The position numbers and the translations under genes are program-made. From Myxococcales bacterium (lineage in GTDB: Bacteria > Myxococcota_A > Polyangia > Polyangiales > GCA-016699535), in the NCBI GenBank assembly GCA_020633325.1, contig JACKDX010000001.1:1522179-1586178 (forward strand): a DNA stretch of 64,000 nt, in the 5' to 3' direction. The notes under the pieces are model-generated. The model had not been told where the DNA came from. It was given only the letters and a program-made list of their open reading frames with translations, and searched no databases. How positions within the stretch are numbered: the stretch's first letter is position 1; the number at the start of each line of letters is the position of its first letter. Positions 22,483 to 24,958 of the stretch are shown here, one piece after another.

Positions 22483-23495
22483 GCCTGAGCCGCATGGCGC
22501 CGATGGAACATCGCAGTTTTGCCCTTCCAAATGATACCAAGGTGCAATATTCGCGAACCCGTTTGGGCAACTGGGTTGACGGACTTGCCAATGACGATTC
22601 CCGCAGTTGGACAGCGATACTCCGCGGTGCGATCCCCGTAAATATCCGTTATTCGCGCCACGATTTCGCCCTTTTTAACGTGATCCATCACACTGGGCAG
22701 GACATCAAGCAATCCACCATGTTGCGTGTATAACCAATTCGAGTGCTCGCAGAGGACGGGTTCTGGGCCAAGGGAGACGGGGCGCTTAGGGAGCATGTGC
22801 ACCTCAGAGAGCAAGCTCCTCAATCCGACCAGCGAGCGGCGAATGTATTCCACCTGAAACCGCTGTGGATCGCGAATTTCCACGGTAATGGACGGAATAC
22901 CGAGTTGCATCGCAGCGCCGCGAAGCGTGTAGTCCGAGGCGGGATTGTGAAGGATAATTTGTGGACGCTGCAAGTAGGCCATTTTGGCGCTGATCTCATG
23001 CGTCATATCCGCCCGCACATAAAGAGAGTTCGCGCGTCCGAAACTTGCGGTATGTAGGTCAACCAAGTAATCGAAACAATGGATGATGCGTTCCTGCAAA
23101 CGAAAGGCGTAGACTTCCGCGACGCTGCCGTCCGGTTTGCCAGGCATGATGTGGTTGAGATCGCTGCCGTCCACGAAGTAACGCTCGTGATTGAGAAATC
23201 CAGGAACATTGACGACGACGACGCATACGATGGTGCCTCGCAGCTGAGCGAGGTCTATCGAGCGCAGAAGGCGATGAATAACCGGGATGCCGTTGAGCTC
23301 GTTGCCGTGAATGGCCGCGGTGATACCAAAAACGGGTCCGGAACGCGTCCCGCGAGCCACGACTACGGGCACAGCGATAGGCTGGCCGGTGCCATCATGG
23401 ATTAGCTCGACGCGCAGGCGGGTTTGCCGGCCCTTGCGTAACTTGCTCGGGTCTAGGCGCGAGCAGATTTGTGTGGGTGGGCTTACCTGAGGCAC
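22479..23495 (-). CDS. Succinylglutamate desuccinylase/aspartoacylase (AstE/AspA) family zinc hydrolase
   Basis: GPVFGITAAIHGNELNGIPVIHRLL (H-x-x-E zinc motif), and DLHTAS further on. About 338 aa, typical for the family. Confidence 0.75.
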   Translation of the reverse strand: MPQVSPPTQICSRLDPSKLRKGRQTRLRVELIHDGTGQPIAVPVVVARGTRSGPVFGITAAIHGNELNGIPVIHRLLRSIDLAQLRGTIVCVVVVNVPGFLNHERYFVDGSDLNHIMPGKPDGSVAEVYAFRLQERIIHCFDYLVDLHTASFGRANSLYVRADMTHEISAKMAYLQRPQIILHNPASDYTLRGAAMQLGIPSITVEIRDPQRFQVEYIRRSLVGLRSLLSEVHMLPKRPVSLGPEPVLCEHSNWLYTQHGGLLDVLPSVMDHVKKGEIVARITDIYGDRTAEYRCPTAGIVIGKSVNPVAQTGSRILHLGIIWKGKTAMFHRRHAAQA

Positions 23496-24958
23496 AGCTC
23501 CTCCATCAGCGCGGGATCGGGATTGATCGAATGGAACAACTTGGTGCGAAACTTCCCTTTGCTGGTGACCAGGCTGCTCGCCATGCGATCAATGGCATTG
23601 ACCGAGAGGACGGTCTGCACGTACGCCTCGATAAGATCATCGAGGCCCAATCCGAGTTGGTTGAAGTCGCGGCTGTCCATCAGCAACAAGCGCTCAGTGT
23701 CTGTCGACCAGGTTTCGTTCGACTGTTTGAGCGAGAGATTCGTCCCTAGCATATCCCAGGAACGCTTGGCGCTGTCGAGCGTCTCAGTGAGCGGCGCGCG
23801 TGCGCGCCGGGCATAGACAGCAACCGGGAAAAACCCATCCGGACCCGCGCCCACCATTAAACGAATATCCACGACATAAATTTGTCCGCGTCGGTCAGGC
23901 ATGGTTCCCACATGATAAAGTTGACCATAAGGTGAGCGCGAACTCCACTTTGTGTTTCCAATCAACGCCTGAACGATGAATCGGTCGTAGTGGTGCTCTT
24001 GGTCCATGAACGCTTCGAGCTCCTCAGCACTTGTGATGGTGAACACCCCCTGCCCCGCGTTGGAGTAGGGAACTTTGACGACCGCAATGCCCCCCATCCG
24101 TGACACAAGCTGGGGTACCTGCGCTTTCGGGACATCGACAAGGGTTTCTGGGAAACGAATCCTGAGACCCGTAGGCTGAAGTTCACCGTTTTGTACGTCA
24201 TAGGCTTTGGCTGCGAGGAGCTTGTTGCGGCCGCCTGCAAGGCATACCAAGACAGGATTAAAGACCACCGTTCGCGACAGGGGTGGAATGCGATTCCAGG
24301 GTCGCTGGGTCACGTAGCGCAAGGCGCCGCGGATGGGGCGCCACGCCTGGTCGGGACCGCGGGCTTCGAGAATGCCGTCGTCAGTCGTGCGAACGGAAGC
24401 GTTAAGAGCGTGATCCTGTAGATGAAGCAGCAATACCGTCTCGTTGCTCAAGTCTGCCAGTGCGGCAGCATATCCAGAGGCCTCCATCAGGTTCTTGTCG
24501 TAAAACACTGCCAGATCCCCCCGCGGGACATGGCGGCGTTTTAGAAGCGGTAAAAATGCTTTTGAAAGCAGGTCCGTGTATCCGCCATATTCAGATGCCT
24601 CTTGGATATGGGGCATGGATTTCTGCCCCGACGGGCTTGAGTTGGTTTCGATCACTACCAGCTGTCGCCGTCCCTCCGCGGTGGCCACATGAAAAAGATC
24701 GCACCCTGCCCACCGAAAGTGCTTCGGCTCGATGGTCAAAAGTGCGCGCACGGAGTCTTCATCAACCTCGGGGTGCAAGTGGCGGTAGCGCCGAACGATG
24801 CGTTCATTGCCAAGCGAAAAAAAATAGCTCAAGAGCGGATGCACATGCGCGTTGAGGACGCGTTCGTAGAAGTGGGACACACGGTGAAAGTTCCCGGGCT
24901 CGACAAACCGACTCGAATAGAGGTGCGGCTCTGACAACGTGGTGATCGGCTCCCTCAT
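23483..24958 (-). CDS. ATP-grasp/TTL-like amide ligase candidate, possibly circularly permuted
   Basis: ATG 24958 (MREPITT) forms an ATGA overlap with the upstream lipoprotein stop. [11 protein letters not shown] (E-x-N-like) sits at residues about 101-111. [16 protein letters not shown] sits at about 291-306, followed by RFIVQALIG and [23 protein letters not shown] (TTL-like strand pattern). Confidence 0.45.
   Translation of the reverse strand: [491 protein letters not shown]

Follow-up and report, generated by a model that had tools for sequence, protein, structure and literature searches.

The 64,000-nucleotide window analysed here (contig JACKDX010000001.1 of a Myxococcales bacterium, positions 1,522,179 to 1,586,178) carries, on its minus strand, three consecutive genes that we call A, B and C. 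Gene A (23483-24958) encodes a protein of 491 amino acids (P0001) which, from its open frame, its AlphaFold2 model, the Foldseek and VIA structure matches and a homologue search, appears to be a circularly permuted ATP-grasp ligase of an unnamed family. Gene B (22479-23495) encodes an AstE/AspA-family zinc amidohydrolase of 338 residues (PF24827, E 5.8e-33), and gene C (21478-22482) a divergent ATP-grasp ligase of the canonical, non-permuted GshB/RimK type, with 334 residues (GSH-S_ATP, E 2.1e-32; GSH-S_N, E 3.8e-8). The start of gene B overlaps the end of gene A by 13 nucleotides, and the ATG of gene C overlaps the stop codon of gene B (ATGA). By these stop/start overlaps, the pairs A-B and B-C are translationally coupled.

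An earlier, sequence-only reading of this DNA had proposed an open frame at 23483-24958 and a set of ATP-grasp-like motifs within it. The frame, for which that reading gave no strand, is indeed that of P0001 on the minus strand, while the plus strand across the same positions contains many stops and is not open. All the claimed motif positions were recovered on the translation, namely residues 101-111 ([11 protein letters not shown]), 291-317 ([27 protein letters not shown]), 326-334 (RFIVQALIG) and 360-386 ([12 protein letters not shown]...[11 protein letters not shown]). Two start codons come into consideration. The ATG at 24958 overlaps the stop of a small upstream open reading frame (ORF), again as ATGA, and an 84%-identical homologue begins at the equivalent position; the ATG at 25000, the first after the upstream stop, would give 505 amino acids. 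Because of the overlap and the matching start of the homologue, 24958 is the more likely of the two.

The family alignment of gene A (34 homologues, about 60% identity) contains around 140 invariant columns. They include D87, E104, N106, S107, S110, G111 and K113 in the N-terminal part and K295, N300-G302, G304, Q330, L332, D364, R366 and N407 further along the chain. Since these residues are invariant across 34 homologues, the motifs are not due to chance. Residues 83-111 (24626-24712, minus strand) would form a beta-hairpin, modelled as strands at residues 83-92 and 98-106, that carries the putative Mg-site motif W83-x-G85-x-D87 ... E104-x-N106-S-x-P-S-G111; invariance, the model and a profile match all bear on this assignment. 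Residues 291-386 (23801-24088, minus strand) are the likely central ATP-binding part, as judged by invariance, sub-threshold RimK matches and a profile alignment to the core of gene C, and they hold the phosphate-binding K295, the glycine-rich loop S299-G304, the hinge Q330-x-L332 and the D364-x-R366 strand. Gene A has the features of an ATP-grasp: a phosphate-binding lysine followed by a glycine-rich loop and a hinge of the form Q/E-x-hydrophobic, together with a Mg-binding acidic residue (D87) and the E104-x-N106 motif, all of them invariant.

The two partner genes could be placed by sequence. The closest solved relatives of gene B are 3cdx, 3na6 and DoeB (6twl); of the characterised enzymes, the N-acetyl-diaminobutyrate deacetylase DoeB is the nearest to it. 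Residues H63-x-x-E66, H148 and E206 are invariant among 32 sequences, so that gene B retains the predicted zinc and catalytic residues and appears catalytically intact. For gene C, the most similar PDB structure is E. coli GshB (1gsa, E 3.7e-22), and its score lies below every NCBIfam glutathione-synthase cut-off (195 bits vs 408 and 150 vs 272).

Gene A itself matched no established family model above threshold. Its best Pfam match was RimK (PF08443), with 12.7 bits against a cut-off of 21 over residues 267-334, and its best NCBIfam match was rimK_fam (TIGR00768), with 12.3 bits against a cut-off of 143.4 within residues 267-336. In Pfam, there was no match at E<=10 to the circularly permuted families CP_ATPgrasp_1/2 (PF04174/PF14403), to tubulin tyrosine ligase (TTL, PF03133), to GSP_synth (PF03738) or to the eukaryotic glutathione synthetase (GS) models PF03917/PF03199, and at the same threshold GshA PF08886 and its NCBIfam counterpart gave none either. 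None of the Pfam models that had been named beforehand for checking, RimK included, thus reached its threshold. Neither phmmer nor the 34-sequence profile found a PDB chain. At least 3,537 homologues were retrieved at E<=1e-3 among 8,000 scored candidates, and they carry no Pfam domain; the 120 matches listed are 59-84% identical to gene A, about 480 amino acids long and nearly all named 'hypothetical'. An exhaustive search of 50%-identity representatives yielded 762 clusters at E<=1e-3. Among the 8,000 scored proteins, a search for domain fusions gave 12 longer ones, all eukaryotic or merged gene models, and no informative bacterial fusion. The family is without a Pfam or NCBIfam model and without a solved structure, and we found no published description of it in the literature on permuted ATP-grasps, on 3K1T or on the pairing of AstE/AspA with ATP-grasp enzymes. 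The type of permutation and the class of chemistry are already known.

The fold was assessed on an AlphaFold2 model computed from the 34-sequence alignment, which reached a mean predicted local distance difference test score (pLDDT) of 88.9 and a predicted template-modelling score (pTM) of 0.91; the ESM Atlas's own model has a pTM of 0.92. A Foldseek search against the PDB returned 123 matches at E<=0.001. The first rank was taken by 3k1t (E 8.8e-10), and the other top matches were the yeast, potato, human and soybean (homo)glutathione synthetases, 3n6x, E. coli GspS, YgiC/YjfC and Cp1B. The VIA structure search, which is independent of Foldseek, found 40 PDB chains at Z>=8, essentially all of them ATP-grasp enzymes. 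Its top match was again 3k1t (chain A), with Z 17.1 and a root-mean-square deviation of 4.3 Å over 330 residues (model 56-464 against chain 15-423), and the next-best Z was 13.6. The ESM Atlas's own model matched the CP_ATPgrasp_1/2, GSP_synth and eukaryotic GS clusters with template-modelling (TM) scores of 0.49-0.53.

The extent of these alignments separates two groups of enzymes. Permuted enzymes align co-linearly with the gene A model and include its N-terminal part: 3n6x over residues 43-430, YgiC over 1-430, GspS over 50-428, the GS-like 5oeu over 7-438 and Cp1B over 23-430. Every canonical ATP-grasp found with VIA, by contrast, aligns only from residues 140-147 to about 454-470, with Z of 13.6 for ArgX, 12.8 for LysX, 12.2 for Ddl, 11.3 for RimK and 10.8 for E. 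coli GshB. In the last of these (1gsa), residues 1-266 of the 314-residue chain are matched, and the C-terminal segment with the Mg site has no counterpart at the C-terminus of gene A.

Profile alignments place that segment at the other end of the protein. The reference was a profile built from 45 sequences of the gene C family, which is canonical and GshB-like, and sub-alignments of gene A were aligned to it with hhalign. Residues 160-395 of gene A corresponded to positions 21-246 of the gene C profile (pairwise E 2.4e-4), and residues 79-113 to positions 278-304, which hold the GVD...VIEIN Mg motif (pairwise E 0.007, 46% identity); a longer segment, residues 59-141, aligned with positions 247-327 (E 0.027). 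When the whole gene A profile was aligned with the gene C profile, the match was to the central domain alone (E 4.3e-4), and the permuted segment was absent from the alternative alignments. The order of segments is reversed relative to the canonical profile, which argues for a circular permutation of gene A. The sequence-only reading had suggested a permuted ATP-grasp from motif order, and it is supported both by this reversal and by the N-terminal, co-linear match to permuted enzymes. The model and structure search that it had called for returned an ATP-grasp fold in a non-canonical order, and neither a canonical order nor the absence of such a fold. We therefore consider it nearly certain that gene A has, as modelled, a permuted ATP-grasp fold. 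That reading had also called the protein TTL-like, and for this part we found no specific support. There was no Pfam TTL match, and the TTL and TTL-like (TTLL) structures scored like other canonical ATP-grasps (Z 8.5-11.4: TTLL11 11.4, TTL 5jcb_F 9.6, TTLL6 9.1 and 4ylr 8.5), all of them aligned solely from residue 146 of gene A and with no advantage over Ddl, RimK or synapsin.

Among the named permuted ligases, 3k1t is the best structural match and has the permuted order in common with gene A. It is annotated as a 'putative gamma-glutamylcysteine synthetase' (YP_546622.1, Methylobacillus flagellatus) and is presumably a member of Pfam PF08886; its identity to gene A is 14%, no sequence or profile search joins the two, and its own function is only 'putative'. 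The eukaryotic (homo)glutathione synthetases (2hgs, 1m0w, 5oes and 3kal; GSH_synth_ATP) are also permuted, the human enzyme having reportedly been described by Polekhina et al. in 1999 as a permutation of the bacterial one. They carry a Mg-binding Glu-x-Asn in the N-terminal third, as gene A does, and align co-linearly over about 240-290 residues (Z 10.4-12.1; Atlas TM 0.53). They differ from gene A in that identity is 11-14% and there is no hidden Markov model (HMM) match, and the genome that carries gene A has separate, canonical bacterial glutathione genes. In human GS, Glu144 sits in the Mg/ATP site within the N-terminal third, the same layout as for E104 of gene A (PMC10106969).

Three further groups share the permuted order. 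GspS and YgiC/YjfC (2io7, 7uka and 7uk6; GSP_synth) align with Z of 12.2-12.5 over 267-273 residues, N-terminal part included. GspS joins a synthetase and an amidase, the latter a CHAP cysteine amidase, for one bond, and genes A and B may do likewise; on the side of difference, the GSP_synth HMM does not match gene A, and the hydrolase here is a separate AstE/AspA zinc enzyme. For CP_ATPgrasp_1/2, the families actually named 'circularly permuted ATP-grasp', 3n6x aligns with Z 12.5 over 284 residues from residue 43 of gene A (Atlas TM 0.51). Their HMMs give no match to gene A at E<=10, and all members (100%) of one CP_ATPgrasp cluster in the Atlas also carry Alpha-E PF04168, whereas the partners of gene A are AstE/AspA-like and GshB-like proteins. 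Cp1B of the E-64 pathway (9cjn) is a permuted ATP-grasp ligase that aligns with Z 10.3 over 305 residues, but it is a fungal secondary-metabolite enzyme with 12% identity to gene A and an unrelated gene cluster. Its authors name hGSH synthetase and YgiC/YjfC as its nearest structures, and cite YgiC and YjfC as peptide-spermidine ligases (PMC12568646). The characterised members of the permuted clade that we found, partly through that source, are all small-molecule carboxylate-amine ligases, acting in the formation of glutathione, homoglutathione, glutathionylspermidine, peptide-spermidine conjugates and the E-64 precursor (PMC12568646).

The conservation of the three genes was surveyed in 80 gene A loci obtained by a pattern scan, with one genome per species. 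These loci span Myxococcota, Planctomycetota, Rhodothermales, Saprospiraceae, Cyanobacteria, Acidimicrobiales, Bdellovibrionales, Chloroflexota, Acanthopleuribacter and others. Enhygromyxa salina, Paraliomyxa miuraensis and Acanthopleuribacter pedis are cultured species among the carriers. Within the fetched flanks, gene B was present in 64 loci, gene C in 48 and both in 47; of the 57 loci whose flanks reach 2.5 kb or more on each side, 45 contain gene B and 36 gene C. At least eight arrangements of the genes occur, such as A>B>C (32 loci), A> <C<B (nine loci) and, in Saprospiraceae, A>C>B. Median identities to the proteins of the window were 59% for gene A, 57% for gene B and 33% for gene C. 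We inspected five genomes without an adjacent gene B, and three of them have a 50-59% identical gene B elsewhere. Distance matrices were computed for 36 loci with near-full-length A, B and C, after one duplicate locus was dropped; they correlated with r 0.86 for A-B, 0.67 for A-C and 0.71 for B-C (Mantel p 0.001 each). No conserved small ORF that might encode a carrier or a precursor accompanied the module in the 80 loci, and those that recurred were shadow frames inside A, B, C or neighbouring kinase and regulator genes.

Two observations were made alongside this survey. AstE/AspA-like and GshB/RimK-like genes, paired as B and C are, occur without gene A in three loci (L086, L088 and L089), and the B-C pair may be the older unit, to which gene A was added later. 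One Polyangiales chromosome (OZ245758.1) carries the same 13-kb region twice, A and B included, at about 5.41 Mb and 9.03 Mb (L019 and L020), and the near-identical gene coordinates point to a recent, large duplication.

Close, full-length homologues of gene A (41-54% identity) were also detected in eukaryotes. They were found in Podila verticillata, Bifiguratus adelaidae, the chytrid Entophlyctis luteolus, Fonticula alba, the red alga Cyanidium caldarium, Trichinella species and Trichuris suis (P0121, P0124/P0276, P0139, P0150, P0183, P0281 and P0282). The fungal members include Mortierellomycetes and chytrids. For many of these homologues, which come from large contigs, the alignment is broken into several stretches, as introns would produce, and in E. 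luteolus a single 1136-residue model contains two tandem copies. The Atlas also holds a cluster with 86% eukaryotic members, most of them Mucoromycota, that has a TM of 0.96 to the model. Separately, the EukProt protein P0288 (947 residues) combines a gene A part (residues 238-367), a C-like ATP-grasp and B, in the A-C-B order of Saprospiraceae; it may be a bacterial contaminant, a merged gene model or a transferred operon.

The genome under study comprises 2.74 Mb in four contigs, with an estimated completeness of 98%, and gene A is single-copy in it. This is small, though the closest relative for the gene A locus is labelled Polyangiales, an order with very large genomes. A canonical GCS2-type glutamate-cysteine ligase gene, gshA (224 bits), lies far from the module, and a canonical gshB is found elsewhere, with 217.6 bits against 114.3 for gene C, which is the weaker of the two GSH-S_ATP genes. 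No PF04262, PF08886 or CP_ATPgrasp_2 gene was found in the genome, the search for PF08886 being made in six frames. Because a separate canonical gshA and a stronger gshB are encoded elsewhere, the A-B-C module is not the housekeeping glutathione pathway.

Gene neighbourhoods offer two leads on substrate and regulation. In all three Rhodothermales loci (L011, 577-5826; L013, 513-5776; L074, 702-5720), a divergent polyamine operon adjoins gene A. It encodes an arginine decarboxylase, an agmatine deiminase, an N-carbamoylputrescine amidase and a homologue of deoxyhypusine/homospermidine synthase, by annotation a complete arginine-to-putrescine/homospermidine gene set, which would fit a polyamine as the amine substrate of gene A; we regard a polyamine substrate as a possible but rather doubtful assignment. 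Secondly, ORF clusters represented by a short Ser/Thr kinase (about 290 amino acids) and by a PP2C phosphatase occur in 13 and 11 of the 80 loci, respectively. Three arrangements place them beside the module, and the lineages concerned are Planctomycetota, Polyangiales and other Myxococcota (L025, L031, L019/L020, L045, L051, L059, L061, L065, L066 and L078); the assignment comes from Pfam runs on L031 and L045. Their position beside the module suggests phospho-regulation of the system. The survey of flanks covered 89 of the 193 flanking ORFs listed and 25 more from six Bacteroidota loci; these ORFs were heterogeneous, the exceptions being the polyamine operon of Rhodothermales, the kinase/PP2C clusters and the clusters of sigma-54 activators.

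Taken with the fold, these data lead us to a model of what the module may do. In the chain of gene A, the hairpin of putative Mg ligands (D87, E104-x-N106) comes first, followed by a Rossmann-like pre-domain (residues about 146-260) and then by the ATP-binding central part (K295, loop 299-304, Q330, D364/R366). The enzyme would convert a carboxylate into its acyl phosphate and transfer the acyl group to an amine, giving an amide bond; we infer this step by analogy, because the characterised members of the permuted clade all catalyse it. Gene B would cleave an N-acyl bond of the product, of its precursor or of a related compound, so that A and B might form a make-and-break pair, a split-gene analogue of the GspS synthetase/amidase. 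Gene C could add a further residue in the manner of GshB. The product would probably be a small acidic amide or a short gamma-glutamyl-type peptide, possibly joined to a polyamine. A small molecule is preferred over a protein as substrate because no conserved small ORF accompanies the module and gene B is close to the small-molecule deacetylase DoeB. On balance, we favour, with moderate confidence, an amide ligase that works with gene B on a common small-molecule substrate.

A wider proposal can be put forward tentatively, as one that we judge somewhat less likely to be right than wrong. Genes A, B and C would make and turn over an undiscovered, widespread low-molecular-weight amide, a peptide resembling glutathione or glutathionylspermidine or a polyamine conjugate, which would form a metabolite or cofactor class of its own. 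Its range would include Myxococcota, Planctomycetota, Bacteroidota and Cyanobacteria on the bacterial side and fungi, a red alga, Fonticula and trichinellid nematodes among eukaryotes, and in some lineages a dedicated kinase/PP2C pair would control it. When a family is this conserved and has a fixed hydrolase partner, it usually serves a metabolite or a modification that is of general importance. Once the product is identified, bacterial and eukaryotic metabolism would gain a pathway and thousands of 'hypothetical proteins' a name, in a family that reaches the parasitic nematodes Trichinella and Trichuris. Independently of its function, the gene A family is a clean additional example for studying the spread of the ATP-grasp permutation.

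Several points weigh against this interpretation. At the level of the fold, the proximity of E104 and N106 to K295 and the ATP site derives solely from the co-linear alignment with permuted enzymes, and the hhalign matches have modest, pairwise E-values (0.007 and 2.4e-4). The functions proposed for A, B and C derive from fold and gene linkage, and the step from distant structural relatives to a substrate is weak because no sequence model of a characterised family detects gene A. As for the partnership, gene B is absent near gene A in 16 of the 80 loci, and two of the five genomes inspected for this have only 29-34% identical relatives of it. The correlations among distance matrices show co-inheritance, not interaction, as any linked, vertically inherited genes correlate. 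A synthetase and a hydrolase of one bond in one operon look futile unless regulated. The polyamine link comes from a single order (three of 80 loci), and the agmatine deiminase and amidase genes of this genome lie side by side about 1.2 Mb from the module, an arrangement compatible with the polyamine idea that does not support it. Finally, the very high conservation of A and B, compared with C, also fits a conserved macromolecular substrate.

The last point leads to the strongest alternative, in which A and/or C add amino acids, such as glutamates, to a conserved protein, at its C-terminus or on a side chain, and B trims them. RimK, TTL/TTLL and LysX would be the analogous writers, and gene B, being M14-clan-like, would resemble the tubulin cytosolic carboxypeptidases. 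The medians of 59% and 57% identity across phyla are what recognition of a macromolecule would lead one to expect, and LysX and ArgX are the best canonical structural matches of gene A (Z 12.8 and 13.6). The Ser/Thr kinase and PP2C clusters by the module (13 and 11 of 80 loci) hint at signalling at the protein level, and an Atlas feature match of 0.94 to a cluster with 67% ATPgrasp_YheCD and 55% TTL provides a lead, though no more than that. Against this, no small ORF that could be a carrier or substrate is conserved with the module in the 80 loci, the characterised members of the permuted clade that we found all act on small molecules, the closest characterised relatives of gene B are small-molecule N-acyl-amino-acid deacylases, and TTL/TTLL structures match gene A no more closely than other canonical ATP-grasps do. 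We consider protein-tail modification unlikely, with the small-molecule amide ligase as the preferred reading.

A second glutathione route, with gene A as a distant glutamate-cysteine ligase of the Thiobacillus ferrooxidans type and gene C as the matching glutathione synthetase (yielding gamma-Glu-Cys-Gly), would account for the clear margin by which 3k1t leads the structural matches (Z 17.1, next 13.6), for the seven PF08886 GshA clusters found at about 0.91 in an Atlas feature search, and for the GshB-like character of gene C, GSH-S_N substrate domain included. It is hard to reconcile with the canonical GCS2 gshA and the much stronger gshB already present in the genome. PF08886 and its NCBIfam counterpart fail to match gene A even at E<=10, gene C lies under every glutathione-synthase cut-off, the linkage of gene A to B (64 of 80 loci) is tighter than its linkage to C (48), and the function of 3k1t is itself only 'putative'. 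This route therefore seems improbable to us. That the motif order is a coincidence, gene A being a canonical ATP-grasp with an unrelated N-terminal domain or no ATP-grasp at all, is very improbable: its structure is a predicted one and its sequence matches to ATP-grasp models are sub-threshold and confined to the central part, but the model is of high confidence and independently matched by the Atlas model (pTM 0.92), the 40 PDB chains at Z>=8 are essentially all ATP-grasps, the canonical C-terminal Mg-site segment has no counterpart after residue about 460, and the D...ExN hairpin (83-106) is invariant and matches the canonical Mg segment by profile.

The remaining genes near the module differ from it in their distribution. 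Upstream of gene A lies a 111-residue ORF (24955-25290, minus strand) for a small, Cys-containing putative lipoprotein, whose stop overlaps the ATG of gene A. A 38%-identical ORF (E 1e-27) occupies the same position in the closest relative (L001), where the copy has no Pfam match, and the search for small ORFs conserved over the 80 loci did not bring it up. Next to it, a gene at 25324-27585 (minus strand) encodes a CarboxypepD_reg-repeat protein of 753 residues, assigned by Pfam, which among the 80 loci is found upstream of gene A only in L001, with 59% identity. Because these two genes are common only to the closest relative, they are lineage-specific and lie outside the conserved module. Scans for promoters and terminators across positions 21000-28000 of the window performed no better than on shuffled sequences. 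Two kinase genes, one of the Hanks type (29087-30373, minus strand) and one of the PrkA family (30903-33116, plus strand), are located upstream of the module at a distance of 4-6 kb; between them and the module is a pseudouridine synthase gene encoded on the opposite strand, and both kinases are probably unrelated to the module.

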